Below are positions 18,801 through 54,100 of a DNA stretch of 64,000 bases, piece by piece. The DNA is from Phoronis australis. Its lineage: Eukaryota > Animalia > Phoronida. How positions within the stretch are numbered: position 1 is the first letter of the stretch; each line of letters starts with the position of its first letter. The notes below the pieces were generated by a model. The model worked only from the letters and a program-made list of their open reading frames with translations. It was not told the origin of the DNA and ran no database searches. The DNA lies in the NCBI GenBank assembly GCA_002633005.1, contig NMRA01000005.1:1409635-1473634 (forward strand). The letters run 5' to 3'. Made by a program: the position numbers and the translations under genes.

Positions 18801-19019
18801 GTTGCGGGCACATTGAAATATCATCAGAGCGCACACTAAGATCTGATAGACAGAGCTCGGCAGCCATGTTGAGAAATTTCGTCTGCATTCCTCTTTTTCG
18901 GGATGGACTTTCCGTTGGGAAGCGTCCGTTTGAGCCAATCCAAACAACTTAAGCGTGAGCAAAAAAGGACGAAAGGCTTTTTGAACGAGAGTATGCGAGT
19001 CAGTTGCAGGCATGTCCAT
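12888..19019 (-). CDS. Gustatory receptor-like (7tm_7 chemoreceptor family) protein, copy A, about 416 aa, 3 exons
   Basis: Exons 19019-18042, 17367-17206 and 12998-12888, with phase-0 GT-AG introns. The protein has multiple TM segments. Exon 2 gives FQLFLNKVSGSSVGVTAWDYFLVDKPLLLA and exon 3 gives VFGICATYFLVLLQF, the TYhhhhhQF TM7 signature of the GR/GRL superfamily. The start was chosen by homology with copy B (MDM...). Confidence 0.88.
13758..15512. mobile_element. Kolobok-like non-autonomous DNA transposon in intron 2 of GRL copy A
   Basis: TIRs AGGAGCATGCCACCC and GGGTGGCATTCTCCT are flanked by TTAA at 13754-13757 and 15513-15516. The right end recurs at about 16236-16410 and, inverted, from 47785. 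Confidence 0.7.
15809..16060 (+). pseudogene. THAP-domain transposase/protein fragment
   Basis: HRVCSEHFPGGKKTYENNIPT (THAP C-terminal half) is followed in another frame by ATDHSYAVS (DHxY HCF-1-binding-type motif). Frameshifted. Confidence 0.55.
16236..16530 (+). repeat. About 300-bp direct duplication of 15353-15655 (transposon end plus flank)
   Basis: GCGGCATTCACTCTGCAGATGAAGCACTGACGTCGCTAGCG...CCACTACGGCTCCCCG is near-identical in both places. Confidence 0.85.
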
Positions 19020-21672: not shown

Positions 21673-22545
21673 TCACAGAGAAGCTGTCACATACAAAGTT
21701 TTATATGCAATTAATTTTTCAGCATTACTGTACTCATAAGTATATGTAACAAACTTGTGAAAATTAGGTATCTTTTTGTGACATCTCTCCTTGTAGACGT
21801 ACTGTTTGGCTAGTAAAAGCAAAATGTTAAATAGAAAATCGTGCACCTCATGAAGTCCAAGAATAACAGGTTCGTAAGAGAGACACTTGGGAAGCTGAAT
21901 GAGACACTTTAGAAGTAGCTTTCCGAATTCCTTCCAGAAATCCTGTACAAGGCAACATTCCCAAAAAAGGTGGGACAGCGTCTCTGGAGCTTTACCAAAA
22001 AAGGAACATAAATTAGAATCCTGAACACGGATTTTGTCTAAAAAGGTATTTGTTGCAATAATCCTGTGTAGTATTCTAAATTGGAACCATCTAATGTTGG
22101 GATCCTTTGTAATTTCATAAGGCAATGCGTATATTTCTTCCAATCTAAACTATCTCCTAACTCTATTTCCCATTTACACCCTGACTTAGAAGGTTTCTTA
22201 ACGTCATTAAAGACTGAACAAATATGTCTACAACTCTTCAAATCTTTCCGTGAGTAATTGCTAAAGGCATGCAAGGGGAGTAGACATTAACACTTTTAAA
22301 TTTACTTTGAAATAGACTTTTTTGAAACCTTCTTAGAACAGAAACAACACCATTATATTCTACAAAGTTGGTTTTTACATCGAATCCATTTTTCATAGGG
22401 TTCAAACTAACGAAATTACCATCAGAGGTATACATATCTCTAATAAATCGTAAGCCTTTTACAAACCAATGCTTATAAATAACACTTGTGCCTCCGATCG
22501 CCAAGTTACTATTAAACCACAAAGGTTGATTCAAAAAGTCCTCTT
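21673..22545 (-). mobile_element. 5'-truncated L1/Tx1-type LINE, ORF2 C-terminus (zf-RVT), frameshifted
   Basis: Overlapping ORF fragments QPLWFNSNL...WFVKGLRFIRD and FQFRILHRIIATNTFLDKI...LCSF...ETLSHLFWEC...QDFW...LLLLAKQYVY. Confidence 0.8.
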
Positions 22546-23751
22546 TAAAAAGGTAGTCCGTTTTTGGGGATGTTTACTTAACTTTGGTATTATCACGGTG
22601 TTCCATCGAAATTGGAACCCCGGTGTAAAACAGATATCCCGGAGTCGAAAACAGACTCCCGCACCTTCAAACCAGCTAACCAGTCCGAAAAACATGAACC
22701 CTGACCTGTAAAACAGGAACCCCGGGGATCGGACAGGATGAACCCTAAAATGCGGCCAATTGTAAAGATGTTTAAAGGAATTAAACAACAATGGCTTTTG
22801 CCTATGTCAATGAGAAGGAAAAGTACCCAGTCGCCGAGAAGTTGGATAGTATACGACCAACGCAAATCTACTACTTTAGTTCCCATTCCGATGGCTGCAC
22901 ATGGGACACTCAGATAAGAGATCAATAATGCTGGGACCTCGCTAGCCGGATCCCGCTAGAAAGGCAAGACTTCGCGTAATCACGCGAGATATTGCCTTGC
23001 ATTTTGAGTGAGAACCGTGTGATTTTTCTATCCGCAAGACAACTACTAAACTCTTGTGAGGCATCTGATTGGTTTGTAAGCCGGAAGTCGTCATCGAGCG
23101 AGAATCAATCAGATGCCTCATTAGCCTTTCACTTGCGTGAACTTGAAAATCTCAACCGGATACCTTTACTGCGGCACTCAAGCGTTGCAGCGAGTATCGT
23201 TCCTTGAGTATCCATTATGAGATACGCATGCATTACGTCAATAGATTCGCCAAAAGGTTAATGGCCTTTTACATTCAAAATGCCAACATGTCGAAACGTT
23301 TCAAATATATCAGCCGGGATGGTATGATTTGCGAGATATTTGGTTTATGCAAACATTTCAGCTCTTCGTTCGTTCGACCTTCAACACTAAATGTTCACTA
23401 GCAGAATAGTTACTGCTTATGTGTTGGACAGTAAGGCCGGAGTGTTTCTTTACGCGAGGACACTCGCTTTCTCCCGTCCCCTGAACCGCAGCGACACATT
23501 TCTCACTGAAAAATCATTTCGGGACTGACTAGACCTGGTCTCAGGGGCCAGGCGAGGCTATTCCGCTATCAACGACACTGTATCGAATAAATGAAAACTG
23601 TCCAATCTTTAAGGTAACTTGCGATATAATTTCACCTTGGTTAGCTGGCTAAAAACGAAAGTCTAATTAGGCTTTCTTCACTCATAAAACTTTCTACACA
23701 CAATATTCCTTACCGTGACTGGATTCTATTCCCCTCACCAATTCGTCACAG

Positions 23752-29277: not shown

Positions 29278-32200
29278 TCAGCCCAGAGTTTCATTGGCGA
29301 CTGTAGTTTTACTCTCGAATTCACACGTCCCACTTGAAAACCCAAATTGCATCAACACCAAGAAATATGTTAGGCAAATTCCATAAACCTGGAAAAACAA
29401 AACGATGGTTACCTTTTATTGAACCCCGTACTTTAGACTTATTAAAGAAACACGTGGGAGCATCAAAATTCAAATATGACCGGGCAATAATTGTAACCAA
29501 GTCACAATTTGAAAACTTGGAACCTCGAAGCTACTATGTAAGGTTTCCTAAATATTCATTTTGACTTCCAATATGAATACAATGTAAGAATAAACATTTT
29601 CCAATTGACAAAATTCGAGCCTAACAGATAACAACTGAATACCGGCTCCGAAGCCATAAAACAAAGCTTTCGGTCAATGTTTATTTTAATTGAAGTCGCA
29701 AAGGGTTTCTTTTTAAAAAATCACGTTAAATATTTTTGTAACGTGGGGAAAAGTTGGCTGAAGTGAAATTACCGTTAGCAACAGAGGTTTGTCAACCACA
29801 AAATAATCCCACGCGGAGACGCCACCTGACGGCACCGAAAGCTTATTCAGAAACAGCTGTAACTCCGCAAGTTGTGATGACGTCATCTCAGTGAATGATT
29901 CCATGTCGTGGAGTATCGACAATACTTCTTGGGCCTAGAATGTAAAACCCAAATGCGTAAATATCCAGCTTCAGGCAGTTTTAAACGGTTTAGCTTCCCA
30001 ATGAGCAGAAGTGTTTCATGAGCAGGTGAGTCCCATGAACACACAAATGTGTTTATTTAAAGCTTTCTTCCTAATGACAATATATTGAAAACAAATTGTT
30101 CTTTGGCCAGGTGTATTAGCTCCGATAGTTGCATATGATCAGGTTGCCATCATACACATTTCAATGTACTGCATATGCATATGAATTCTAAAAGTTTAAA
30201 GTGTTTTATTGAGCTATTTAAGTACAGGAACCTATACAAATATCTACTAGGACAATGACATCACAGAAGGCACGTGAGAATCCATTTCGTTTTGTACGTG
30301 TTTGTTAAAGGCGAAGGCAACCTTTTTTCGTGTCACTTTTAGCAAAAATAAGGTTCGTTGATTATCCCAGACACATTTTTTCACTTAATTACAGCTTTTC
30401 GTAATTTGATTTATTTATCGTCCTCTACTCCGGAAGTGATGTTTTGGGAGGCAAGAGTTTCGCGCCAATTTCTTTTCATTATAGTCTGACTGTGAGAGCT
30501 GTCGAGTCAGTCATTGTTCTACCTCGGTTGTGATAAGGTTGGTCGTCGTTTGCTTTTGTTTACAAGTCAGTTAACATGCCACGTTGTTGCTGCGTGCTGG
30601 GATGTACTCATTATCGTCTCACACGCGCTTTGGGTACCTTGCGTCGCTTTCCGAAGGATGACACACTTCGCCGTACTTGGCAAGTCGTTCATGTGAAGAA
30701 CGCAGCGCTAACCGTCCACGCAAATGAATGAAGGGTTACCGAGTGTGTGGCAAGCATTTTCTGCCGTCAGATTATGACAGATATGTACGCTGAATTGACG
30801 AAGGTCCCTGCGAAACAACGCCTGAAGAAGGGTACCATACCGTCGCTGTTGATTCCCGGCAGTGCCCCGTCGCCAACCCCGAGAAGTGCGTTTTTGAAGC
30901 GATTAGCCTCACGAGCTGTGGCCACTATATACAGTGACTGGAGGCACTTCATCTACTGTCACCCGTACCTCCGAACGTACCCCATTGCGTGCAATTCCAG
31001 GAACTAGCAGTGATGGGCCCTGTTACGTGCTGTTGTCTCTAGCCCAGAGCCTGTAAGCAGCCCTGCAGCGATGTTGAGAAGTGGGAGTGAATACAGGCCC
31101 AGTTGGACACCCAATGAAGAGGACAGTTCGTCATCCAATGTACAGATCGGTGAGCCAAAGTTTGATAAGTTTATTGTGGACTTGTATTGGAGCTCTTTGG
31201 AAGGAGCCAAGTGTGTGGCGAGGGAGTCACACGGCGGGATGTAAGCAGTTTGGGTGCTCAGATCACCCTCCAGTGGGAGTGTGTCGTGGGATACTCGGGC
31301 AAGTGGAGCAGTTCTTCCTCCAATAGTGAGACGATAATGAGTGCACCCCAGTACGCAGCAACAGCGTGGCATGTTGACTGACCCGTAAGCAAAAGCAAAC
31401 GACGACCGAACTTATCACAACCGAGGTAGAACAATGACTGACTCTACAGCTCTTACAGTCAGACTAAAATGAAAAGAAATTGGCGCGAAATTCTTGCCTC
31501 CCAAAACGTCACTTCCGGAGTAGACGACGAGTAATTAATTAAATTACGAAAAGCCGTAAATAAGTGAAAATATGTCTGGGATAATCAACGAACCTTATTT
31601 TTGCTAAAAATGACATGAAAAAAGGTTGCCTTCGCCTTTAAAATGTGTAGAAAGTATAAAATGGTGTTTGAATCTCTAATGTAAAAACTATACTCCTTTG
31701 TGCTACGCTCATCAGAATAATTTTGTATAATTTAATGAAACAACTTTGTTAGGCGCAGTTTACCTTTGCATTAGCGGACGCTCCGACTAGGATTACTACA
31801 GAAGTAATGAGTAGGCCACCAATTATCCAGTACATGTACGTTGCAAAGAAGAGATCGTTCGCTCTTGCGCAAGCGAAAGTGGCGAGAAGATAGATCATGC
31901 TGATGATAAGAGCGGTGTTCATCACCAGATTTACTGCGATGTATGGAGAGAAAATAACACCGAGTTCGTCTATCAGTTTGCAAACGTGGCCGTGTAGTTT
32001 TCTGTAGTAACAGATATTTGGATAAAATGTGCTATCCTCGACCACCCTTCTCAGTTCAGAAATGAACTCGTCCATACACATGTTGGTCAAAGAAACCATA
32101 AGGATATACAAAAAGGTTGGTGCAAGCCATGCAGCACTGTTGTAGGAGTTTGGAATTATGAAAATTATCTTGAATGCCTTTAGCCCCGGGTCACCGTGTT

Positions 32201-32744
32201 TCAACGGAGCAAAAAGAAGATCATGGTGCGGCGTCGCAATCTGCACAGTACTGTTAAATGCTACGTTCAAAACACTAAAAGCGACGAACACTGCCGTTAC
32301 GACGTAACATTTTCTTTGCATCCGCACTAGTGAGACTTTCCCTATGTTCCAACAGCTGACCAACTTCCTGACAGAATCGAAAAACCGCGGGAGCTTAGAC
32401 CACTGATGAAAAATGAGGAAATGGAGGATCGCGTGACAAGCACAGAGGAAAAGCCATATTAAGCTGGTGGCCGCGCTGAAAAAGACGTATTCCATTCTTG
32501 GTATTTGTGTCAGAATCCACACTTGTCTAACACATAAGGAAACTGGTACGGCGCATACCAAGAGCTGATAGAAAGAGCTTGGTCGCCATATTATGGAGAA
32601 TCGTCGTCTTCCCTCGTTTTCGAAATGGACATTCCTCTCTAAAGTGTCTGATTGAGCCAATCCGAACAACTTAAGCGTGACCAGATAAGGTTGAAACACT
32701 TTTTGAACCAGAACCTCTTGACTGCCTGTTGCAGACATGTCCAT
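29278..32744 (-). CDS. Gustatory receptor-like (7tm_7 chemoreceptor family) protein, copy B, about 417 aa, 3 exons
   Basis: Exons 32744-31764, 29934-29773 and 29388-29278. Exons 2 and 3 have the same sizes (162 and 111 nt) and phases as in copy A. The C-terminus is VYGICLTYFLVLMQFGFSSGTCEF. The sequence aligns with copy A throughout (e.g. YNSAAWxAPTFLYILMVSLTNMCMDEFISEL). Confidence 0.88.
30309..31637 (+). mobile_element. Kolobok-like THAP transposon derivative with about 310-bp TIRs, in intron 1 of GRL copy B
   Basis: TTAA TSDs at 30305-30308 and 31638-31641; termini AGGCGAAGGCAACC and GGTTGCCTTCGCCT. The broken THAP ORF from 30576 reads MPRCCCVLGC...RRFPKD...W... then, across frameshifts, YRVCGKHFLPSDY and QRLKKGTIPSL. 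Confidence 0.8.
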
Positions 32745-34073
32745 CTTGTTGAAAAGTTAACTTCGAGAAAACTAGTTGTAGATTAGTTAACTACCGTTTA
32801 GCGCCCGATCAACTGAAAAATAACGATATAATGCAAGATCTTGATCGTACTGGTGAAAAATAACTATTTGCTCACCTTTAAAAAATCAATGAGGTATAAG
32901 ATCAAGTAGCTGTCCATATGAATACGTTTTACCGCATATAAACCCCACTTGAAACTATAATGGGTTTACACTATTGTTCTTCATAACGTAACCGTTAGCG
33001 CATCTATGCGTAATTAAACCCGACACCAAAAAACTAATATGGTATACCGCGCGTGGCCATATTTTTAGTGCAAAATGGCATCGCAGTCAATACTTGAAGA
33101 AGAGAATTTAAAAATGGGGTAAACCCGTATTATCTGACATTTTATTTATCGCGTATTATTTTCAAAAGTGGCCATGGGATAAAATCGTGTAGGGTTGTAC
33201 TGAAATCTATGACCTGAAGATCTTTTCCTACGTGGTGCGTTGGTCCTTCTGAGATTGAACGGATGAATGCCACGTGTTTAAGCGTAGTCATTTGGACCAA
33301 AACTGCCAACTGCTTACTCTGTTATTAACCTGCCGGTGTTTTTTAGTACGCGCGTATTTGCGCATATGCGAAGTCACACCATCGATGTTCTGTGTTTGAC
33401 CAGAGTGCATTTTCGTCATATTACATCTTTCTTTGAGCAGAGAAACTAGGATTTCAACCTAGTCTCAAAGACAATGAGATTGGATGTTTATTTGAAAACG
33501 TGATAAAGACAAAGAAAGTCTTGTAAACCACCCTGTTATAAATACCGGTGCAAAGATTCCAATAATATTCAGTGTTGGAAGTTCAATTTATGAACCGAGT
33601 TCCGTGGTCATAATTTAAGTTATGTTTGGCATTAAGTCACTACCTCCCAAAATGACACCTCAGTTTAAATTGATACACATTTTTATATATCTATTTCAAG
33701 TTATATTTTTGGAAAAAAATCCGTCTTACCTAAGAATTGAGTGAATTTCCTTTATTGCGCAACACTTTCCAAATTCGCCGTGGGGTGGAATAGTACAGGG
33801 ATGAGGTATAGTTTCTTAAATAGTACTTAATTCTTTTTTTCAAATCAGCGACTTCCTTTTTTATTTTTGTCCCTGAAGTCATAGAGTTTGAAACAACAAA
33901 TTGCTGTGCCAAGTGGTAAGGGGGGTTGAAATCTATTTTAGAGATCTCTCGTCGCAAGCGGCTCGCTGTTCTCATGCGTTATGCTGGCAATTGGTCCGTG
34001 ATTTTCACACACTAGTTGAGGGTCGTGCTATGCACGATATTACAGAAGCAATCGTCTGATTTCAGTAATATGG

Positions 34074-37000
34074 ATGCTAGTCGCCATTGTCGACACCGCT
34101 TATTTGGAGAGAATGAGGCGGACTGAAACAAAAACTGGTTTGGACGATCAATCTTCTCTTGAAAGATACTTGGGCTTGGGTGAGACAGAATGGCTAGAAG
34201 CAGTCTCTGAGTTTAAAACAGTCAACGGAACAAAGGTTTGTTTTCAACTAAATTCTCCTTAGCTTCTATACCTCTCGTTTTCTTATCCATCGCTATCTCT
34301 TTCTTCCTCATCGTCATCATCTTCTTATCTTTATTCTTCTTATTCGTCCTCCTCCTCATATTCTTTTTCGTTTTTCCTTCTTCCCTTTCGGAAATATTCC
34401 ACCACTTTCAATGTTTTTCTTGATGTTTTTAAATTAGCAACATTTAAATTAAGATACAACCTGTCTTAGTTACCGATGTATTTGTCTGACACTTGTAAAC
34501 GCAGATCGAGCTGACTATTCTTTAACTTTGGCTGCCATCGCTTAAAAGCCAAGGGGTCACCGTAAAATTTCCGTCCTGACTTCAGGATTTAAAAAAATCT
34601 TTATAATTCGACTGGTTAGCGATCCTAATTAAATATAATGCAGTCGATGAGGCGTAGCTGACTGATTGTCTTTTAAGGTTTTGTAGAACTCTTGAAAATG
34701 TTAAAATTCAGAGGGAACTTTCAGGTATTATGCTTTATGAAACGTTCTATTAAACACTGCTAGGAATTGTTTTTAAAATGTTCTATTTTTCTATGAGGAA
34801 CTATCAAAAATAGGACGCACATAATTTTTGTGAAAAAATAACTTTAAAGTTGCATAAATCTACATGTCTAGAGTGCATTCAACCAAATTTCTACGAAATA
34901 AAGATTTCAACTCAACAAAAGTACATATTTACCGAGATCAGAAAGCATCAGAATTTGATTTTTTAAATTTATTCCAATCTGTCTTTGACTGGGTAACATG
35001 ATCATGCCGTTTTAATAAAATTCAATAAAAAGGCACAATCGTAGCAAAACAACGGTATTAATAACATGACCAAATTTCCTTTGATATAAAAGTGTTAAAA
35101 ATGAATATCTTACAGGTTTCTAAGTTATCATTTCGTTTTCTTTTCTATGTAACGTTTCAATATTTTCATAAAAACGATAAAAGTCCCATTTTCGATTGAC
35201 CCTCATGCAAAAAGGACCAATTTCAAATCACGTGTGGGAGAACAGTGTATACGGAATAGCACCTGAAATTTTCATGTGAATCCGGACTGTTACTTCTGAA
35301 ATTTGATGCTCCCAATTTTTAACATAACGTTAACGTCAGCGGTAGAAATGCTTGGAGGTGACATCGTTCATCCATCTGTGTAAGCTTCAACGAATGACAA
35401 ATCTGTGTCATATTTCAAAATTTACGGCAAAATTCAGCACCTACAAATTTGTTGTGTTAAAATGTCACGTGATTCCGGTATCGAACTTACTTTAAAATTA
35501 AGGATTTTTACCTAAATATACTAATAGAAATCTTTTATACAGGTCAAGTTCAGACACGTGTACAGAGGCATCAAAGTTTATGGCGCGTCAGTTGTCGCCG
35601 GTAAACTATATGGAAAATCGTACAACGGATGGGCGTACGGCAATCTAGCGAGAAAAATCCACGAAAATCTCAATTTGTCTGGTAAAGTAACCAGCGATAG
35701 TGCTTTGAACGAAACTGAATACTTTCATATAACTAACCTCCGAGGACGGATTTTTATTTGAATAATTAACTTACGGTTTCTGGAAGTACAGAATTTGCTT
35801 AGTAACTTTCAATACGAATAGGCTCTACTCGCTTGATGACAACAAGACGTTCAATGTTACATTTCACCCTGTTCAATTCGCTATAAAACGAAAGTCGAAT
35901 TCGGCCATTTATTCAAATAAAGCAGTCTCATATTTCATGCCGGTTTACCAACAAAACTTCGAAACGATCAGCGACTCGAGAAAACGCTTCAGAGTTTATT
36001 GAGGTTGGACACGTGAACCCCTAAATTTGCGAATTCGAAAATGACGCACGAACGAATTGCCCGTGACTTGAGTTGGTAACGAAACTGGAATCCCATCGCA
36101 GTAAGGAATATTATGAGACCGATTTTTATGAGTGTATAAGGCCTAATTTGATGTTCGTGTTTAACTAGCTATACAAGACAAACGCGGCTTTTACAAGTCT
36201 ATCTGATAACACCGATATACAGCGTAGCCTGCATATTGTGCGGATAGCTGGTATTTACGTAAAATATCGCCAACATTTCAATACCTTTCAGTTAACATCA
36301 TTTCTAAAATCTATTGGTCCATTTAAACCAACCACGAGCAGACTGCATCCCAGCTGGCTGAGTTCAATGATGGCAGCCGCCTGCTCGAAGCCGGTATTAT
36401 TTATGGCCATGCTGCGAAGAGTCACAAGAAGGGCCGTGCCCGAGTGCTGTCTAATCAAATGCTTACAGGCAACGTCAGCCCTGGAGTTCTGCGCCTTCTG
36501 CTGTCACGGGGATGGTCTGGGGAGGGGATTAATGCACCAGCATATCCCCAATGATCCTGTCCGTGACAGGTATTACAGGTATTACAGGTATTACCAACCT
36601 CTATCCAATTTCCATTGGCACGACATTTCGGTCGGCCATTCTCCGGCCATCTTCAGGTGTTAAAGTGTTCTTAAAAGAACGAGCACTGTACACTCATAAT
36701 GGTCAATGATGAGCAGTTTTTACTATTTTTTTCTCGTCTGAAACAGGGTTTGAACCGGGCACCTTGAGTTTGTCAATCCAGTACTTTTTAAAACCACTGC
36801 ACCATCGAGTTATGTACTGGTTAGAATTCCTGGCTAACAATCTAAGGATCCCAGGTTCAAACTCAGCTTGAGCAAAGAGAACAATTTAAAAGTGCTCATT
36901 ATTGACGACCATGAGTTTACCATACACCTGCGCTCGTTCTTCTAAGAACACTGTAACACCTAGAAATAACATGAGAAATGACCTACCGAACAATCATCCT

Positions 37001-40000
37001 GATATAAATAAACTAGAGTTTGGTGTAAATAGACCAATAAATTTTAGAAATGATTTTACATAGCTAGCTCAAAGCGATTTTAGGAAGGCTTTTCAGTTAA
37101 ATTATTTCCACCATATGTATCTGAAACAGAGTACGATGCCATGGATTGGCAATTCAGCGAGAAAGGCTCAGAAGAGTCTATGACGGCGTGCTTCATACAC
37201 AACTCGCATAACGTTAGCCCCTACGATAACTACAGAAGAAATGAAAAGGCAGAATTATTCATATACGTCGGTACGTATGAAGCTATGTTGTATTTCAATG
37301 CACTACCACTATTATATTTTCATGGGTTTTTGTATAAACCATAACCTATGAATTGTGTACCTCGTTAGGCCTTTATCCCCGACTGACGTACCGAAAGACA
37401 ATGTACCAAAAATTGTCCAGTATATCCCAAGAAATTTTTGTCTTGATGTATTGTTCGCTCTTAGTCGCCAGCAACTTTAAGACCGTCCCCAACCGTGATT
37501 AGTTTCGCACCCATATCCTCAATGAGATCATTTAGGTTTTACTGCCGTGGCCCATTCACAGCCCTCCATCCCACCTCTCGTCAGTGTATCGCCAAGGAAT
37601 TATTTGTTCATTGAATACGTTTAGTTTTTCCAAACAATTATTTAAATCAACAATTTACTAATCCCGTCTGTGTAATTATTTTCCCCAAAAGGCAAACCCA
37701 GTGAGCCATCTGAGGTCAGTGCGCGCCTGATGTATCTTGTGTCGTACTTAGTGGAGATGACGACACCATCTGGCGAGTACGTGTCACGACCGATGTGTAA
37801 AGTGGACGCCAAAACGCAGGGGGTCTTGCAATCGTGGGAAGGCTTGGCTACGGCTGCCATTAGAACCTCCCGAGAAGCCGTCGACGTACATACCGCTGCT
37901 GGTGGAAACCCAAAGGTAACCTTCAGATCACCGGCACCAGTGGGAATGAGGCTTTAAGTCAGCAGACCGATGAAGTCCTTCCACGACTTCACGGTCAAAA
38001 GATGTCTATGACATCTCACTACTCTTCCTGTAATGAACAGTAAAATAACATGAAATTGTCTTCAATTGCGATCACTCCGAGTGATTTCGTGGCTAAAAGG
38101 GCAATTTTCGAAGGGAAGATGTTCGCGTAACCTCTAAAAACGGCATGCTGGCGGCGTTTTGTTCTTGGTAGAGTCCGGAGATGGCTATCGTCCTAAATTC
38201 GCCTAGTATAAGATGTGCCCTGGAGTGCATGCCAATTATTTGGTGAAACATTCCCCGACTATGTCTCTTATCTTAGTCTTATAACACACCCGTGCATCAC
38301 AGCCCAAGGGTGAGAGTGAACTGCGCCCTATTGGTTATACTCATTAGCTAACATGTAATACGGTATATTGTTAGCAACGTGCTCCTCTTGTTGTAGGCTG
38401 GTGTGCACAAATTTGATGGGATACTGCTACCAAAGCTTTCGGCTATTACGACAGTAGAGGGCGCTAACTGCAAATATTCAAGCACAAAGGTAATAAGTAT
38501 AAACATGAAAGAAGGAGTTGAAAACGGCGAGGTTTATTCAGCCAAATGTTCAGACGAGTCTACCAGCAAGAAAATCAACGGAAACCCTGGCGTGTTCAAC
38601 GACGCTCAATATTATGGTGGTGTCGCTGTTGATGCACTGACGGACATTTTCGGAAAGAATCCTTTCAGAGGCCCAGTGAAGCTCCGTGTGCACTACGGCA
38701 AGCGCTACGAGAATGCATTCTGGGACGGAGAAACAGCCACTTTTGGGGATGGTGGAAACAGATTATACCCATTGGTTGGCCTTAATGTCATAGGACATGA
38801 ACTTACGCATGGCTTGACGGAGAAGCACTCTGGATTAGAGAGTCATGGTCAATCGGGCGCCATAAGTGAAGCAATTTCCGACATGGCTGGTGAAGCAATT
38901 GAATACTACCACCACAAGGAGAACGATTTCCTCGTTGGAAGCGAAGTGTACAAGCAACGTGGCGCTGCAGTGCGGTACATGTGCCAACCGGAAAGAGATG
39001 GAAAATCTATCAGCCACGCCAATGACTACTATCCAACCATGCATCTCCACAAAGCAAGTGGAGTGCTCAACAAAGCTTTCTGTTTGTTGGCGAAGAGCAC
39101 TGGTTTCTCAGCGAAGTTGGCGTTTCGCATTTTTGCTCAAGCTAACCAAAACTATTTCGGACCAATGACAACGTTCGGTGATTGCGCGTGCGGTGTAGAA
39201 AACGCGGCAGCTGATGAAGGCGTAGACCTTACTGTCGTAAAACATGCACTCCAAAGCGTAGGTCTGTGCTGCGGGTGTACAGGTGTCAACGGCTTGCCTA
39301 ATAGTGGAAACGACGTATCTCAACACATGCATTTTGATTACCCTACGTCAGCCAACATCGACGCAAACTCACAAGAATCGGACCAAAACGGAGCAAGCAA
39401 ATCACTATTCGTTGACAGGGATCAAACTCCATACGGATCACAGCACAAAAAGGAGTCATTCGACCCATCACCAGTGAACACTAAACCCGATCCCTCGGGA
39501 TCAGACAAAAATGAACCAGTAAAGCCATCGCCAATAAACACTACCCCGGATCCGTCACGATCTCATAAAAAAGAACAATGGGTTAAGCCACATCCGCCAG
39601 GATCAGATCAGAATCCAGAACCTGTCAACCCTACGTCAGTCAACACTAACCCTAATGCCTCAGAATCAGACAAAAATGTACCGGTCAAGCCACTACCAGG
39701 AAACACTAACACATATCCACCAGGATCAGATAAAAAAGAACAATGGGTTAAGCCACATCTGTCAGGATCAGATCAGAATCCAGAACCTGTCAACCCTACG
39801 TCAGTCAACACTAACCCTAATCCCTCAGACTCAGACAAAAATATACCGGTCAAGCCACTACCAGGAAACACTAACACATATCCGCCAGGATCAGATAAAA
39901 AAGAACAGTGGGTTAAGCCACATCTGTCAGGATCAGATCAGAATCCAGACCATGTCAACCCTCAGACAGTCAACACTAGCCCTTATCCAACAGGATCAGA

Positions 40001-40988
40001 CCAAAATGTACCGGTCAAGCTACCACCGGGGAACACTAACACATATCCGTCAGGCTCAGATAAAAAAGAACAGTGGGTCAAGCTATATTCCTCGGGTTCA
40101 GAAAAGAATCCAGAACCTGTCAATCCTCCATCACTCAACACTAACCCTTATCCAGCAGGATCAGGTCAGAATGTATCAGTTAAACCACCGCCGGAGAACA
40201 CTAACCCATATCGGCCAGGATCAGTTCAATATGAACAATGGGTTAGGCCATATCCCTCAGGATCAGATCAAAATCCGGATCCTGCTTCTTCTCCGCTAGT
40301 GAACACGCCTAATCCTTCAGGATCAGACAGAAATGTACCGGTCAAGCCAATGTCGGTAAACACTAGCCCATATCCGCCAGTATCAGATAAAAAAGAACAA
40401 CGGGTTAAGCCATATCCTTCAGGATCAGATCAGAACCCAGAACCTGTCAATCCTCTGCCAGTAAACACTAAACCTCATCCCTCAGGGTCAGACCAAAGTG
40501 AGACGAACAAGCCACTGCCAGTACACACTAAACCATATCCTTCAGGAGCAGATCAAAATCCGGAACCTGCTTATCCTCCGCCGGTGAACACTAACCCATA
40601 TCCGTCAGAATCAGATCAAAATGAGCAATGGGGTGAGTCGACTTCTGGGTTATTCGACTTTCGTGCACCGCATCCTAACCAAGCTGGCCAATCAGCTGCA
40701 GACTCTGAGACGCCAACTGGTAAAAGTGAAAATGGCAGAAGTAATACCAATCAGTCACCGAGTGACAAATCTAAACCAACTGTTCCAGACTCGTTTAAAG
40801 CCGGAGATTTATTCTCAGTGGACGGGGGACAAACAGACAATGCAGCTGCTCAGTCTAGAGACTTGATGTCTTTTGCTTCAGGAGTCTTTAACCAGGTCAA
40901 ATTTCCATCGTCGAATGATGGCAAAAGGACGCCAAGTGGAAATGGAAAATCGAACGACACTGGCAAAGTTGCGTCCAATTCTGACTAA
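34074..40988 (+). CDS. Thermolysin/pseudolysin-family (peptidase M4) zinc metalloprotease precursor with a C-terminal Pro-rich repeat tail, 5 exons, about 1085 aa (start uncertain)
   Basis: Exons 34074-34235, 35543-35681, 37130-37270, 37692-37915 and 38397-40988 splice in frame (3258 nt). Domains: FTP propeptide (VKFRHVYRGIKVYGASVV); PepSY-like segment (ARLMYLVSYLV...SRPMCKVDAKTQGVLQSWEGLA...GGNPK); catalytic domain with YENAFWDG, FGDG, HELTH, GAISEAISD and HKASGVLN. Confidence 0.88.
36298..37055. mobile_element. Foldback/MITE-like inverted repeat in intron 2 of the M4 protease gene
   Basis: The arms CATTTCTAAAATCTATTGGTCCATTTA and TAAATAGACCAATAAATTTTAGAAATG are inverted, as are GGTGTTAAAGTGTTCTTAAAAGAACGAGC and GCTCGTTCTTCTAAGAACACTGTAACACC. 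B-box-like GGTTCAAAC occurs in both arms. Confidence 0.6.
39460..40640 (+). repeat. Coding tandem repeat, 165-bp (55-aa) period, about 6-7 units
   Basis: The EQW(V) anchor codons fall at 39573, 39738, 39903, 40068, 40233 and (as EQR) 40395. Unit: KEQWVKPHLSGSDQNPEPVNPTSVNTNPNPSDSDKNVPVKPLPGNTNTYPPGSDK. Confidence 0.92.
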
Positions 40989-43429
40989 GTTTACCATAGC
41001 CCAAAACATCCGCAGGCTTACATCTTGCTGCAGGGCGTAATTTGGGAAGTGTCGGAGTGTGACGCCCCCAATAATTTAAAAATGTTTTCCAAATTTGAAA
41101 ATTTTCCGAGAAATGAGTTCATGTTTAGTTGTAAATTGATTCTACTCCCAATTGTGAACTCAATCCTTAGTAAGTCACGATCGCTCATTTTGTAGTCATT
41201 TCCCCCACAACTGCATTTTGTTCACGTGAAGTTCTATTCTGCGTAAACGTCAGAGATTTATAACCGCTTCACTTAAAAAGGTGAACTGCACGGCACTAGT
41301 TCACGATTATTACCGTCAGAGTGTTTCAGTCTCGTGCGGCAATGATCAAAAGCACTTACCGGAAAGTTCAAATCAACCTGTTTTAGCAGTTATATACTGA
41401 ATGTACACGAAACAGGATTCTTTGCAAAGAAGACGTTTTTATTGGACCTAATACAATTTTAAAATCAAAGCACGTTTGAAATCAATGAATAAGAGTTGCA
41501 ATTTATTTTTTGTGAGCTCAATTAAACTCGCTGTCCTAGAGCTATTGAGTAAGTCGCTGGTACTGAGTTTGCGGATAGATGGCGCAACGCAAGCAAGACC
41601 CAGCCACTTCATCAATAGAAAAGACCGTAGAAAATCGATTGCACCTTTGCTGTAATGTTCATGAGCGTGGTAATAAAAAATGAATTTTTGCCACTGAGGA
41701 ACAGAATGACATCCACACGGCCGGCATGTAGACCATGGCAGTGATACCGCACGTTGGAATGTAATCAACGAAACGTAAATTTTTCTCCCATTCAATATCC
41801 AAATGTCGTCATAGATGCCACCAGTTTGCCAAACTTTTAACACTCGAAGAAAAGCTTCCAGGCAAACGAAAAAGCAACAAGGAACACGATTTGAGAAAAA
41901 CCCCGGAGCTTCAGCAGCTCTGAATATCCACGAATGTGAAATAATTGAGAACATTGATTAGCTTAGAAATATTAGTGTCTCTCACCGGCCGCTTAAGGAT
42001 GAGCAATCACAGACTAAACGACTTCAGTGTTTTAAGTCGCAAGGTAAAACACTTGCCACACCATGGCAAATGTTCTGAAACCATAATCGATCTTTGAAGT
42101 AGAAGACATCGGAAATAACGTCCAATGACTTCGGAAATTTATTCGTTGAACTTCGTTAAGGTGTCACGTTGTGAGTTAGTTACGGTTATGTAGTTGAAAT
42201 GACATTTTTTTGAAAAGGATACCAACCACGGTTTTGGCCTATTACCAGATTTTAAAAACAACTTTCCCATCTGTTTAAAACAAAATAGTGCTCCATAACC
42301 CTCTACAATCTTCAAAATTTTGAGGAAGATTTGAGAACTTTCCCATTCTGCTAAGCAGGCAAGCGTGACCCGTCTACGCGTTTAGCGAATCACACGGTAA
42401 CTGTGGGGAAAGACCACATAGCAAGAACTATAATATCCAATTTGTGACATAGGAAGTACGAATTTTTAGTTGATTTCTGCTTTTATCTTTCAACATTGAC
42501 GCCAGTGATGCATTAGCAGGTGACAGAATGAGGACTGACTGAAATCATCAAAGCAGGGTAAAATTGTAATACAAGTTCTGATGGCCTAATAGTAGCTTTA
42601 AGGTACTCGATCACTCGCGTTATTTAGATGTCGTTGGAAATCTTCTAAATGAAATAATGCCAAAGTTATTGCCGGGTATGACAAAAATGCTATCACGAAA
42701 TTTCACATTTATTCAATGCGTACTATAACTGATCGGTGCGCTTGTGTGTTTAAACTTGCGTGGTTGCACTCGCTCCTCGTGGCATTCAATTTGTTTTACC
42801 AGACACGACAAAATGAGCGATTTGACACCCCAGACCGCCCACACAAAGCAAAATTATTAATTTCGTCCCTGTTGCGGAATCGCAGCACCTCGCGCAGGTT
42901 CTGACAAAGTGAAATAAGCTAGAACTAATGTAACAGACAAGTCCACGACTTACTGTTTGTTTCTGACGTTTACGTACTTTTAGGAGAGACCATGCGGATT
43001 TAGAAGGGTAACCATTTTGAGCAAAATTTTGATAGGTTGTCCCTTACGGTATTTTAGATCCATCAGGGTTGGAAGACCTAAAACTCTGATGAAACAAGTA
43101 AGAATTTCCACGCGAAGATGAGGTTTATGTGAATATCATAAGATGGCGTATGTAATAACCTTCGGATGGCGTTGAATTCATTAACGCCATCACCCCCAAT
43201 TTCCGAGGCTGATTATTCGGTAAGGGGCACACTTAATAAGAGGCATCGCTTGTTGTCCTCACATTTAATAAAAATAAAAATTTCCTTTGAAATACACCGT
43301 GTCTGGATGGGTAAAGCTGGAACCAAAGCATACGCGACAATGGTGACAGCATATAAGGTGATGCTGTAAAATCAGCTTTGATTGCAACCACACCGATCAA
43401 ATAACTTATCACGTTCTCATTGCACAAGA

Positions 43430-48100: not shown

Positions 48101-51100
48101 AAGTATGAGGCCGTGAAACATCTCCGTGTCTGTGGTTGGTATTTCGTCGACAGTGATTTCTGTGACAAATTCCGGCTTACCAAAGAACTATCCATACGTT
48201 ACGTTGCCTGTGAACATTTTGCTATAGAAATCACAAGCTTGTGACAACCACATCAGTGGAAATTACCTCCAACACTGATACCTGTTTGGAACGCTATTAC
48301 ACCAGTAAAGTATATGGTTTTGATTCAAAATATTTTTGATTAATATTTAGTTTAGTTTCATGAAGTAGGGCGTACTTGTTTAACTTATTTTTTGATTTTC
48401 ACTAAAATTCCATGTTTTTTGTGAACCCATTGTTCAACAATAGATATCACTTTAGAGGTGACAAAATGGCAATCCTGACTTGCAGTGTTCATTGTTTTTT
48501 TTTCATATTAACATTTTACTTCTAAATACATTAAGGTATACAACAATGAGATATATGTAAATGAAACACCCACACACACATATCTAAATAATAGAACTTC
48601 ACGGTTGGTCTAATCTAAATAAGTATTGAGGGTTTCCCAAAAGGCAGTTTTATGGGGAGTTTTTAATTAGCTGTAATTGATGTAAAAAACTCATGTTTCA
48701 TGCGCATGCGACAAATGCCATTTCTCACATGGAACATTGCATTCTCACATGACATTTGAATGTTCCAGGTGAGATTTGTTCAGTTGTGCCATGTTACAAT
48801 AGAAATGGCACATGGCACAAACACTATATTTGTGACATGGGTTTTTCATAGCAAAATGATATAATGAATTTTAGGAGAAAGTTTTGCATTTAGTTAATTA
48901 AAAATATTGTTTTACAAAATGGTTGAATGTTTAAAACACTAAAGTGTGATGCCTAATTATCAATAGATAATGTTTAGACCACTTTGGTCACTGATAACCA
49001 AATTATCAACAAATCAGAATTAAATTGTCAACAGAATTATATCACATTTTTTGCCTTATTTTCGTAATGACGTTTGACTTGCGCTAATTAATTTGCAATA
49101 ATATTGTTTCTTTTCAGGACTTGCATAAAATTGGTGACATCAAAACATTTTGATCATAGATTCTAAACTACTTCAGGCAAAATTGTGAAATTATAAAGAT
49201 AAAATTATGTAAAACAGATGAGTGTAATTGGAATATTCTGCAGCTTTAGTAACAGGCCCCCCTCTCATGATATATTGCACCAATTACATTGGTCTGTTTC
49301 AAATAATTCTTCATTTTCAAAAAGTCACATGTGAGGAATTTAATGAAACATTCCATGGCACTTTTGATTTTAGAACATTACACACCATTTAACCCCTTCG
49401 AGATCAGTGGTGGCCCAGGCAAAGAAATCATCTGAATCTTGAATGATGGCCTATTCCTGCTTCATGGCATTATCTGCCAGTCGTTTTGACGATCCTCCCA
49501 GTCCGACGCATGGACCCTTGCCATGCCCTGCCTCGAAATAATGCCAGACAACGTATACAGCATGAAATCTTGTCACCAAGTCGAAGATTGTTTTGTTCCT
49601 GTACTGGGACGTTGGCGAGTCCGTCCAAAAGTGAACTGCTTCTAGTCGTCCCACGAGTTGCTTCACAAACGCCATGATCTTGTTGATGACGGTAAGGACA
49701 ATTGGTGCATTGTGTTGAAGAACCTCCGAGACAATGATGATACTCTTATGACTTAGCTTATCATCCTTACTTCTGCAGAAAATTACTGTGGGATGTAGAG
49801 TCACAGCTGTTACATTCCAGTAAGATGACTGTATTTCTTCATATTTTGAGAGCAATAATTTTCCACGAAATCCATCTGGATTAGCACGTGACTTGGTGGT
49901 AATCTTTCTTTCATTTCCTTCAGTGCTTTGTACTGGGTGATAACTTTTCTCATGTGGTCAGCAAACAAGCTTTGGGACTCCTTCATGAGTTTGGCAAACT
50001 CAGTGCTAGGCAATTCTTCTTCTGAGATACGGATCTTTCCTTTCTGTCTGTCAGTTTCACTCTTCTCCACTCTCGGTACTTCACGTTAGTTGTGGTTTGA
50101 TTCCGTCTAGGTTGCTATCACTGTGTGTTTCAAGGAATTTGTCTGGGCTTGTGCATTTGGTGACTTTTAAGTCTTTCTAATATCTCAGTTTAAGTGCAAA
50201 ATTCTGATGCTTGGTGCACAACCAAACTGATCTCGATGAGAAGTTTACCAGGGTAATATGCGATGGTCTTGCATGGCAGAACGTTGCCAAGGAGATCCGG
50301 TATGTGGACTCGGAAAGAAATTTATGGTGTAAGTTATGCATGTAACCGTTTAGTACTCGCTTCTGAATCTTTGTTTTCTCAACTTTGACTGCGTCGGCTT
50401 TATCAAGCAACATTCTTGACATATTTTTCTTTATTTTAAAGGTCTTTTGACGTTGTTCCACGACTTCGAAAAAATCTCTGTGGTGAGCTGAACATTGGCT
50501 TCACCATTTGTCACGATTCATTGAGAATGAATGAAAGGTTTGCTATTTGTTGATATTGTTATAAGTGTGTCTTCCAAAGGTTCAGGTGGTCAGTGCAGTG
50601 GTTATAATCTGAGAGACTTAGCAGTTTTAAGACGTGTTCTGATAACAAGTTGTCCACTGAAGACAGGAAAAGACCTTATTGTTTCTTGTATTTTGGACCG
50701 GGATTACTTTAACTATATATCAACATCTTTGAGTTACATTTTCTAAATCTTTCATGGCAGCAAACATGTATCGTGATGAGCGGTTGGTTTTATATTTGAC
50801 AAAGAGTTGTTCATTAACCAGTCAAATAATTCATTTCAGGTTTTCATCATTTACACCTCTCAATTTAGCGCTCAGCTGACTTGAGTCTGATTTTGTTCAT
50901 AATGTGTTATAATTTGACGTCCACCATTTGGTTTTCTCCCTTTACTTGTAATGTTTCATTATTTTCACCCAGTCATTGTATTTTGAACCATGCATTCACT
51001 GAAACAAAATGAAATCCAGTCATATTTTACAGGGGACCAAAGGTCTGAAACCCAACATTACGGCAAATTCGGAAAGTCTCCACATGAGGGAGCAAAAAGC

Positions 51101-54100
51101 CACCTTGAACAGAGAGATTCACTAAAGGAGAAGTATGTTTCTCAAGAACTACACCATTGCAGCAGCAGAGACGAGATCACATCAATGAGATTGAGTATGG
51201 ACTTACATATCACCTCTTGCTCATAACTATGCTAACATTTTATAGGAACTAAATAATTTAATGTTAACATGTCATGGTTGTATTGAAAGATAATTTGTGA
51301 ATGCGAAAACAGAAAATCCTGCAAATATACAATCCTTGAACTAACAATGAACCTCGCCAGTTCACACAGACAGCATCATGCAGTGTTACACTCAAGCAAC
51401 GCGTCATGGCACTTACTGGACACAGGCCGAGGATTTTTAGTGGATCGTTTTCACAACAAAACATTTAGCAACTTTCAAGCCACACGATATTCACATCATT
51501 CCAACATGTCAAATTTTTAACTCGTTTGGAAAAATAAACACCAAAAATAAGTGATTAGCCTGGAACTTTCACTTTAAAGAGAACTGATAAGATTTTCAAA
51601 GCCAATTGATTCAATTTAAATGAACTCTTATCTTTATGCGAAGACATCACAAATTACTATGGGGTATGACATGGCACCTACCACTCTGCAGGGACCTGAC
51701 TTCCATCATAATCCCAACCGACCTTCTCTGAGTACTGCACCCAACGACTGCGACCTAGAAGAAAACATCAGTTACATAAGTGTGTTGTTATCAATCACCG
51801 TGTTACTAGTGTAAGATTGGCAGCAAGTCACGGGTTCGAACCCCGGTCGGGGCAGAGATCTCTTCAGACTCAACTATAGGTCATGTGATGTGACCAACAT
51901 GTGGTGTGTATGAAGACCAATAATCAACACACAATTACATAGTAGATGCATATGCACTTCTGCAATTAGGAAAGGCATTTTCTATTAACTTGTTTGGATT
52001 TTTGTAACCACCAGTGGTGTGCATAGTTAGTAGTAGGTCCTGGGATTGAATCTAGGTCAGGGCTGAGATCTTTTCAGACTCGAACTATAGGTCACCTGAT
52101 GTGATCAACTTATGGCATGTATAAAGACTAATAGTTCTTGGTTATCACGTACATAGTTTTAAATAAAGAAACCCTACATTATCCTCAATGGACTTCGAAG
52201 GGATACTGTGAAGTTAAAGCGGTATTACCCCAATTCTTTCCATTAAGAAAACAATTTTTGATTTAGGGCACTTACAGCTATTCAATTGATTTCAAATTGG
52301 AAGTGATTTCAGGAGTTCAAAAGAACTGACAGTTGTCAAGACCAAGTTGACAAAATTTCAGGTACGACATTACCAATCCCAGAGGTCACTTTTCAATTGA
52401 GTAAAGAACAAGGTAAGATCAATTTTATAATGGTGAGTGACCTAAATCAAAACCTAGTTTTTGACAGAAAGCATGGGAATAACGCTGCTTTAATTAAAGC
52501 CACACGGAACACTAAATATAACGACAGAGGACTAAATTTCACTTTCAGCCCTTCCCACTATTTGGTCAGTTAACATTCACCAATTTATTTTTTTTGGCTT
52601 TGTGATACTGGCTTGGATCGAAATCCTGTTTTATCAGCGGCAGCCATCGCCCTCGTCGCGGATATGAAATGGGACATGACGTCCTTGTTTATCTATTGAT
52701 ATTTCAAAAGGATTGCCTTTTTTCGCAAGGCATTGGTACAGCAGTGGAAATTTGACGGCATTATAATAGCAGGAAAGGCAATAAAATGCTGTTCATACCA
52801 GTAGGTTGAAACCTTCCATCCACATTACATGGGATCTGTAGCTGGCGCTGAACGCCTGTCTAACAAAGACCTGATCGCCGTCTGGCGGGAGAGTGAATTT
52901 CATTATGCCGCAGCTACTTTGAAAATCAGCTATTAGTAATTTTACACAGTCTTATGAATTGTACTGCTCACTTATACTTAGAAAAAAGAAACGCCTGGTA
53001 AGAACTCATGGCAATAGCCACTAACAGGTGTTCCACATTTTGGGAACCAGTTTGTTGCCTGTTATTAAGTTTCTAAAAAAACTGATTCTCAAAATGCAGA
53101 ACTGCTTGTAACTTTAATATTTGAACTTAAATTTGTTCAGTATGACAAAACGCAATAAATTGACCTTCATAGGATAGTATTTGTATTTAATGTCCTGAAA
53201 AGCAGAATAGAGCTACATGAGGATATTTCAAGGTGCATACTTTTTACTACTAGGACATTTTAATGTCAACAATAACAAAATTAATTCTATCTAATAACGC
53301 TGCACTTTGGAAGCACAAATGTTCTTCTGGGTAAATGTTTTGATATCAGAACTGTGGGGTCAGTCAAAGGTCGTATGCCCAGTTGTAGCTGAGGCCTCAA
53401 CAAACACATCTGAAAGCACGTTAACATTAGAACAATTCTGCAGAGCTCAGCAAAACATTGCAACCCAATGTAAAATAAGTTGGAATCTGTCGTCTGTAAT
53501 CAGACATAACAACATCCAACACAAACCGCTTAAACCTACTGGGTGCAGTAAAAAATCCAAAACAGTACCGACCACACAATCTTGACAGCGGGAGTTTTGT
53601 GCGTTCATTAAGAGAGCAGTTACACTTACCCATAAAGTACATTTTATTTTGATAGTACTTGTTTCCATACTTGTCCTCTCCTATGAAATCGCCAACTTTC
53701 AATTCATCCGTTCTGAAAAACAAAACAGAAAGTGAACATGCCTCAACACTGGTCCACTTTCTCAGCAGAAGCAGCCATTTGGCACATGCTATCTGGAATG
53801 GTGCTCGGTGAATACCTTAAGGCCCTCACTCACCTGAGGGGAAAGGTGCTTGTAAATTGTAAAAGGGGAATTTTCGCGGCGTTTTTTACAAAGAAGGGAA
53901 TTTTTATGTCAATCTCTAATTAGAAGGGAGAGGAGGTAGTGTGGCCTAGTGTGACAGGTGCCCGCCTTGTCTACTCAATGTCGTGGGTTCAAGTCTCACT
54001 GGCCCACACTGCTAGACCCTTGAGTCAGGTTTCTAGCTCCTCAGCTCGGTTTTATTTTAACTAATGAAGGACAAAAATAGTTCCATGTGATCAGTGGTTC

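Follow-up and report, generated by a model that had tools for sequence, protein, structure and literature searches.

What is a 569-residue repetitive tail doing behind the catalytic domain of an M4 metalloprotease in an animal genome? The question is raised by a gene in a 64,000-nucleotide stretch of Phoronis australis DNA (contig NMRA01000005.1, positions 1,409,635 to 1,473,634 of the forward strand), here called the window, in whose own numbering all coordinates are given. A first-pass annotation had described the tail as a low-complexity domain fused to the protease, which might tether the enzyme to a matrix or else be processed into repeated peptides. The observation itself was confirmed. 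The tail proved to be exonic, transcribed, in frame, lineage-specific in the searches run and predicted to be disordered, while a biomineral or anchored role gained no support and the repeated peptides came out weakly. In addition, the analysis revealed features that the annotation had not described, namely a spliced pre-pro region, the replacement of Tyr157 by Ser and R-x-x-R sites. The explanation that we favour, at somewhat short of an even chance, is that the gene encodes a secreted zymogen that would be activated by a convertase and whose disordered tail would act as a spacer or tether in mucus or matrix, replacing the PPC domain.

A spliced, transcribed host gene

The protease gene is a spliced, transcribed gene of the host. 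Its last exon holds an open frame of 863 amino acids (aa) (38397-40988, + strand). When joined to the four exons found upstream (34066-34235, 35543-35681, 37130-37270 and 37692-37915), it gives a single open frame of at least 1087 residues. Two of the four exon junctions were supported by reads of run X5, 34235/35543 by six spliced reads and 37915/38397 by three, both with GT-AG borders; the remaining two are sequence predictions.

Transcription was followed in three raw RNA runs (X5, X6 and X7) whose labels give the same species, about 18-19% of each being read. Tail RNA was found on one strand only, the sense one, with depths of 2.9-7.9 in X5 and 0.5-5.3 in X6. In X5, reads covered each bin of the stretch that leads from the M4 domain over the linker to within the repeat, and the bins of the last intron (37956-38383) had zero depth. 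Neither a splicing-out of the repeat nor frameshifts in other individuals, the two outcomes named beforehand as fatal to the idea of a fused tail, were seen at read depths of 0.4-8. Among the RNA-read alignments listed, there were no joints or indels within the tail, although at such depth rare forms would escape.

A bacterial contaminant or an assembly artefact could be suspected from the top protein matches, which are bacterial or unnamed at 44-50% identity, and from the short-read DNA contigs, which break inside the youngest, near-identical repeat units. Because of these breaks, the exact copy number of the repeat is supported piecewise, with no single bridging record. However, one DNA contig spans 37100-39627, reaching from the introns across the M4 domain into the first part of the tail, with a depth of 41 compared with 42-47 next door, which excludes contamination. 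Together with the spliced reads, the stranded RNA and the eukaryotic neighbours (a 7tm_7-like ORF, an NDUFA12 exon and a zf-RVT element), this uniform depth largely refutes such an origin, which we regard as extremely unlikely.

Loose read ends were also found at 38706 and 38735, with 34-39 reads each in X5 and X6, which match over about 30 bases and then diverge. Contigs of X8, from 2015, also touch the bin 38706-38735; they showed nothing on the tail and were left out of the evidence. These ends point to at least one other, better-covered M4 gene, probably a paralog and possibly of microbial source.

Growth and composition of the repeat tail

The M4 domain occupies residues 1-294 of the last-exon frame, and the tail of 569 aa follows it directly (39279-40985). 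An open frame of about 560 aa had been claimed from position 39300; the frame stands, but its start lies 21 nucleotides earlier, at 39279. The tail consists of a unique polar linker of about 52 aa, recognized from its sequence and RNA-covered in X5 (39279-39434; composition measured on aa 295-349), a coding higher-order tandem repeat of 21 monomers in units of 165 base pairs (bp) or 55 aa, predicted to be disordered (39435-40632), and a C-terminal segment, likewise unique and polar, of about 118 aa with the stop codon (40633-40988), all on the + strand.

Tandem Repeats Finder reported an array with a period of 165 and 6.6 copies at 39472-40558 (80% matches, score 1225), while a monomer profile resolved 21 full monomers at 39435-40607 and a partial one extending to 40632. 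The initial description of about six 165-bp units built from shorter subrepeats was therefore accurate. Monomers are 63 bp, 60 bp (one codon fewer) or 42 bp (seven codons fewer) long and alternate in the order 42-63-60. The tail grew by in-frame duplication, in which a 63-bp monomer gave rise to the 60- and 42-bp variants and the three were then copied as a 165-bp unit. The periodic EQW motif was also found as described, with seven occurrences of EQW or EQR spaced at 55, 55, 55, 55, 54 and 76 aa, five of them directly preceded by KK; a sixth KK lies at the start of the array. A second-frame open stretch of 253 codons inside the repeat (39538-40299, +) most likely follows simply from the periodicity of the sequence, the same frame having eight stops over the whole region.

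Preservation of the frame was also borne out. The other five frames of the repeat region contain 8-42 stops and the coding one none. Assuming neutrality on trees of the repeat copies, 4.9 nonsense changes were expected over the six units (101 substitutions) and 6.0 over 20 monomers (125 substitutions), and none was found in either case (P 0.008 and 0.003, respectively). The three indels inside monomers, of 3, 21 and 3 bases, are all multiples of 3. In addition, the unique last 118 codons are open, with a chance P of 0.0014 by composition. Selection would thus appear to act on the frame, length, composition or C-terminal end of the tail more than on exact residues.

The dibasic sites had suggested that the repeat might be a polyprotein cut at KK into 53-residue peptides beginning with EQW, an explanation that we find improbable. 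It is favoured by the KK ahead of five of the seven EQ(W/R) motifs, by the cleavage of KK in some precursors, such as proenkephalin, as described in PMC9070308, and by a single G-K-R near the C-terminus. This tripeptide (40920-40928), about 20 residues from the end, has the form of an amidation and cleavage signal. However, all KK-EQW motifs lie in the 42-bp monomer, whose copies group in a single branch of the monomer tree, so the periodicity was inherited from one origin and the motifs are not independent: the combination arose once and was then copied. KK was lost in two of the seven copies and Trp in one. Moreover, the repeat contains neither KR, RR or RK pairs nor amidation signals (G-basic-basic), while human PC1/3 and PC2, probed with an unbiased library, were reported to cleave behind KR and RR, and PC1/3 to leave the KK of POMC uncut (PMC9070308). 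A neuropeptide-type multi-copy precursor was rejected as well, as it would show conserved KR/RR flanks at each copy, often with a Gly amidation donor, and only KK was found.

Regarding composition, the whole tail contains 16.5% P, 13.4% S, 10.7% N and 7.0% each of D, K and V, and the repeat 21% Pro, 18% Ser+Thr and 11% Asn, with 10.6% D+E, 9.1% K+R and no Cys. Per 150 aa, the Pro share peaks at 0.24, while in none of the 189 homolog tails of at least that length does it exceed 0.13. As had been proposed, the tail is predicted to be intrinsically disordered. By charge and hydropathy, linker, repeat and C-terminal end are each placed on the disordered side of the boundary, and a model of three repeat units, built on a shallow alignment of six self-copies only, had a predicted local distance difference test score (pLDDT) of 44.6, a predicted template-modelling score of 0.11 and no secondary structure. 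Thermolysin-type enzymes cut before bulky hydrophobic residues. L, F, I and M make up 14 of the 396 residues of the repeat, six of them followed by Pro, compared with 50 and one in the M4 domain, a scarcity that fits resistance to self-digestion. The linker has six such residues, just one followed by Pro, and these are possible M4 cut sites. As for modification, 25 of the 72 Ser/Thr of the repeat have Pro at -1 or +3, a context that favours O-glycosylation, and the tail may be glycosylated in this way. Mucin PTS (Pro/Thr/Ser) domains have about 40% or more Ser/Thr, plus Pro; with 18% Ser+Thr and 21% Pro, the repeat was not assigned to this class.

Neither a transmembrane helix nor a glycosylphosphatidylinositol (GPI)-type end was found in the tail, whose highest 19-residue hydropathy is 0.29 and whose C-terminus is polar; a membrane-anchored ectoenzyme was rejected on these grounds. 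Since the repeat is also nearly charge-neutral and free of Cys, the biomineral or anchored role suggested at first was left without support. Repetitive, disordered, secreted proteins are common in biomineral, tube and glue matrices, and this general likeness is what would favour a matrix domain of that kind. Against it stand the balance of D+E (10.6%) and K+R (9.1%), the missing Cys, the little Tyr and His, a single S-x-E/D in the repeat and the low transcript level, and we consider such a domain very improbable.

The proposed search of the repeat unit for relatives returned no homolog anywhere searched, the tail being lineage-specific in every search run. No PPC domain and no Pfam family at E 1 was found in it, and none of the 7995 candidates scored, which were 474-1511 aa long, was a homolog at E 0.01. 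The Atlas gave no usable match, which shows neither absence nor novelty. The tail pattern was confirmed in 0 of 226 matches in metagenome contigs, and bacterial genomes gave 4 of 40, all weak. One of these four, L002, was discarded as a chance short match in an unrelated enzyme-like open reading frame (ORF); two of the other three are the same match in the same genus.

The protease and its relatives

The last exon begins with an M4 catalytic domain of vibriolysin/pseudolysin type (38397-39278, +), whose acceptor was seen in reads. Pfam M4 and M4_C matched with E values of 3e-22 and 4e-28, both above the cut-off, and the domain matched PDB entry 7ecc (E 5e-71). Its model, with a pLDDT of 91, gave a template-modelling (TM) score of 0.87 to vibriolysin MCP-02 (3nqx, Foldseek). 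The HExxH motif lies at 38796-38810 and the Glu acting as third zinc ligand at 38868-38870, 20 residues past the second His. In domain numbering, which equals that of thermolysin minus 8 through the active-site helices, H134, E135, H138 and E158 are each invariant in 272/272 homologs, a count that, like the other residue counts, comes from redundant and mostly bacterial sets. The equivalents of Arg203 and His231 (the latter at 39048-39050) and both main Cys pairs are kept. By fold and zinc motif, the protein thus genuinely belongs to the M4 family, but its architecture is not that of a vibriolysin.

Three positions around the active site depart from the family. The equivalent of Tyr157 is Ser (38841-38843), while Tyr was found in 409 of the 410 scoreable proteins of 415 fetched. 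Ser also takes the place of Asn165, conserved in 406/410 homologs, and the residue two before His231 is His, where 268 of 272 homologs have Asp or Asn. Tyr157 is a catalytic helper and not a zinc ligand. Since it helps stabilise the transition state (PMC7021514; 10.1101/2023.05.30.542994), its replacement by Ser makes a lower, narrower or altered activity of this enzyme likely. The M4 domain also holds an odd number of Cys, nine, with three clustered at its end, and one of them may be free for an interchain bond.

The front of the gene matched a full M4 propeptide profile, built from 310 of the 405 fetched proteins, with an E value of 2e-30. The first coding exon identified (34066-34235, +) aligns with this profile and codes for a hydrophobic stretch that is probably the last part of a signal peptide, for the beginning of the propeptide and for an RMRR motif (34110-34121); its donor was seen in the six X5 spliced reads and its acceptor is predicted. 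The exon at 35543-35681 (+) carries the FTP propeptide motif (Pfam FTP E 0.005, under the curated cut-off), with its acceptor in six reads and a predicted donor. A symmetric exon of 141 nucleotides (37130-37270, +) is predicted, since the propeptide profile scores 92.8 bits with it and 76.5 bits without it; X5 depth over it was low (0.34) and no junction reads were listed. The exon at 37692-37915 (+), which had no Pfam match alone, encodes the PepSY-like end of the propeptide and a lengthened pro/mature junction (profile E 6e-13), with its donor in three spliced reads.

The pro/mature junction has 18 residues, compared with 8-10 in 263 of 278 homologs, and contains RTSR (37862-37873, +). R-x-x-R is the minimal furin consensus, and such a site occurs in the junction of 0/278 homologs; by chance, one would be expected in 18 residues with a probability of about 0.024. 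The sole other R-x-x-R in the 1087 residues is the RMRR at the start of the propeptide, and none was found between the M4 domain and the tail.

The best matches of the protein are vibriolysin-type enzymes with 44-50% identity. The named ones are all bacterial, and most carry PPC, PKD or P domains behind the catalytic domain. The statement that vibriolysin-type enzymes have PPC domains at this place and not such repeats therefore holds for the bacterial relatives listed, with PPC or PKD mostly at the tail position. Some eukaryote-like M4 proteins have instead a Pro/Thr or Gly linker and ShK domains, which makes the C-terminal slot appear exchangeable. No named animal M4 was among the best 120 and 150 matches, and of 24 proteins whose names were sought, those that had one were bacterial or generic. 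However, this collection also lacks four proteins encoded in the window, and the negative therefore carries little weight for animals.

Four proteins with ShK domains in the C-terminal slot (P0239, P0289, P0290 and P0400), two of them on transcript-sized contigs, would be eukaryotic and probably marine. Together with P0381, which lacks ShK, they form a firm clade that is sister to Vibrio-like enzymes (100/99 and 95/89 support), and no published description of such a two-ShK vibriolysin-type clade was found. In these five proteins, as in the Phoronis protein, the slot behind a vibriolysin-type domain is taken by a C-terminal part that is not of bacterial type. They differ from it in that the ShK proteins keep Tyr157 and Asn165 and have folded ShK pairs on short linkers, and all five are 38-42% identical to the Phoronis protein, compared with 45-48% for the best bacteria. 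A quick tree of 83 rows placed the Phoronis protein apart from the five eukaryote-like rows. However, a tree constraining them together was 75.7 log-likelihood units better (approximately unbiased test, p-AU 0.92), indicating that the free search was inadequate. In a careful tree of 42 of those rows, the Phoronis protein paired with another long branch without firm support. Common origin with the ShK clade is thus neither shown nor rejected by the trees, and transfer from bacteria is suggested by the distribution of the family and not by the tree.

In comparison with the characterized enzymes MCP-02 (3nqx), PlM4P (7ecc) and LasB (1ezm), the FTP and PepSY-type propeptide, the M4 fold (TM 0.82-0.88, 41-44% identity), HExxH with its Glu, the Arg203 and His231 equivalents and the two main Cys pairs are common. 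The Phoronis gene differs in its at least four introns, two of them read-supported, and in the Ser at the Tyr157 and Asn165 equivalents, and its product in the lengthened junction with RTSR, the nine Cys and the 569-aa repeat tail that replaces PPC/PKD. Secreted animal enzymes can carry mucin-like or Pro-rich stalks. Such stalks have in common with the tail a disordered Pro-rich tandem repeat on a catalytic domain and weak sequence constraint, but the Phoronis tail has only 18% Ser+Thr, high Asn, no membrane anchor and no sequence similarity to them that was found. A published parallel is offered by the M35 metallopeptidases of the sponge Amphimedon, extracellular zinc proteases that an animal acquired from bacteria and domesticated, and whose genes have spliceosomal introns and paralogs. 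They belong to a family other than M4, and no repeat tail is mentioned in the account given by PMC4784904.

M4-like proteins are annotated in databases for several invertebrates. In the literature, M4 proteases are described as almost exclusively bacterial (PMC7851659), and a word look-up in PMC7851659 and PMC10017501 returned nothing on animal M4s. No intron-bearing animal M4 genes were found in the literature searched; the main text of a compendium of metazoan horizontal gene transfer (PMC13342648) does not contain 'protease' or 'peptidase', and its supplements may list such genes.

Role of the tail and setting of the gene

According to the reading that we favour, a bacterial vibriolysin-type M4 gene would have been transferred to an animal and domesticated. 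The zymogen would be secreted, and its propeptide would be removed at RTSR by a furin-type host convertase rather than by self-cleavage. The catalytic domain would stay joined to a long, hydrated, disordered spacer, which would take the place of the bacterial PPC and retain the secreted enzyme in mucus or in the extracellular matrix. A more ambitious version, which joins host-convertase activation through R-x-x-R at both ends of the propeptide, detuning by the Tyr157 change and a repeat tether with Trp as sticker in place of PPC into one undescribed animal M4 family, seems doubtful to us.

PPC aids action on insoluble substrates, but most M4 enzymes are described as shedding their C-terminal domain on maturation (PMC7426729). 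The tail could correspondingly be a C-terminal pro-extension cut off in the linker, which would aid solubility or sorting, or act alone as a disordered matrix protein. Besides the removal of PPC at maturation in most M4 proteases (PMC7426729), the six L/F/I/M of the linker, one of them followed by Pro, and the depletion of such residues in the repeat would agree with this fate. However, self-cleavage may be weakened by the Tyr157-to-Ser change, and no R-x-x-R separates the M4 domain from the tail. We consider shedding unlikely.

Estimates of omega bear on a different possibility, namely that selection hardly acts on the tail, which would be a coding minisatellite tolerated as a passenger of a paralog that is under relaxed selection, weakly expressed and partly decayed. 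Over 20 monomers, omega was 0.57 (twice the log-likelihood difference, 2dL, 7.5), which suggests weak constraint on the amino acids of the repeat. Over the six 165-bp units it was 0.69, not significantly below 1 (2dL 2.6-2.8). The replaced Tyr157, Asn165 and Asp before His231, the long branch, the low expression and the 34-39 reads given at one spot by a different M4 copy would also suit a passenger. On the other side, there are no stops where 5-6 were expected, all indels are in frame and the unique 118-aa end is open (P 0.0014). Furthermore, the zinc ligands, catalytic Glu, Arg203 and His231 equivalents, main Cys pairs, whole propeptide and splice sites are kept. We rate a passenger as unlikely.

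Several observations weigh against the proposed tether and the history behind it. Apart from the value of 0.69, the omega estimates are limited by the non-independence of copies within one array, among which conversion may occur, and each of the three variants listed within the tail in other individuals alters an amino acid, although two of them fall in near-identical units and could be mis-laid reads. Of the 85 positions that are 90% conserved in homologs, 15 differ here, and the protein has the longest terminal branch, both of which also fit relaxed selection. Tail RNA was not seen in run X7 and expression is low overall. The Ser+Thr content of the repeat is low for a mucin-like domain, and it has two N-sequons. 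The RTSR site has no basic residue at P2 and was a post hoc finding. The trees identify no donor, and six ATG-to-donor candidates for a start codon or upstream exon 5' of 34066 were none of them convincing. Finally, the C-terminal shedding described as typical of M4 maturation would itself argue against a tail that stays attached.

Downstream of the stop codon, a long 3' untranslated region is likely (40989-43290, +), with X5 sense-strand depth of 0.8-5 in repeat-free bins up to 43305 and poly(A)-type hexamers near 41521, 41672, 43267 and 43273. The sense RNA runs about 2.3 kb beyond the stop (40989-43305) and crosses a high-copy repeat at about 42200-42560. High-copy repeat fragments also lie in the introns of the protease gene, at 34750-35200 and 35960-37055, with DNA depth of up to thousands.

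Elsewhere in the window, two long ORFs with similar N-termini lie upstream of the protease gene on the minus strand (18036-19175 and 31752-32756). The first matched 7tm_7 with an E value of 2e-5, just under the cut-off, and the second had no such match; the pair is likely to be gustatory-receptor-like genes. Between 30533 and 31440, two inverted copies of a segment starting like a THAP zinc-finger gene (by eye, with no Pfam match) and with long inverted arms are probably a decayed DNA transposon. An NDUFA12 exon (53430-53816, E 4e-4), remnants of long interspersed nuclear elements (LINEs; 21676-22573, zf-RVT E 7e-7) and transposase-like fragments without a Pfam match (49454-50500) were found on the minus strand.

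Repeat tails as such are common in secreted invertebrate proteins. Here, the tail belongs to what would be a clean case of domestication, with read-supported introns, in a mostly bacterial protease family. The gene bears on whether control by a host convertase can be imposed on a bacterial zymogen that processes itself, on the substrates that are left to a natural M4 enzyme without Tyr157, and on the growth of a new disordered domain from a coding minisatellite.

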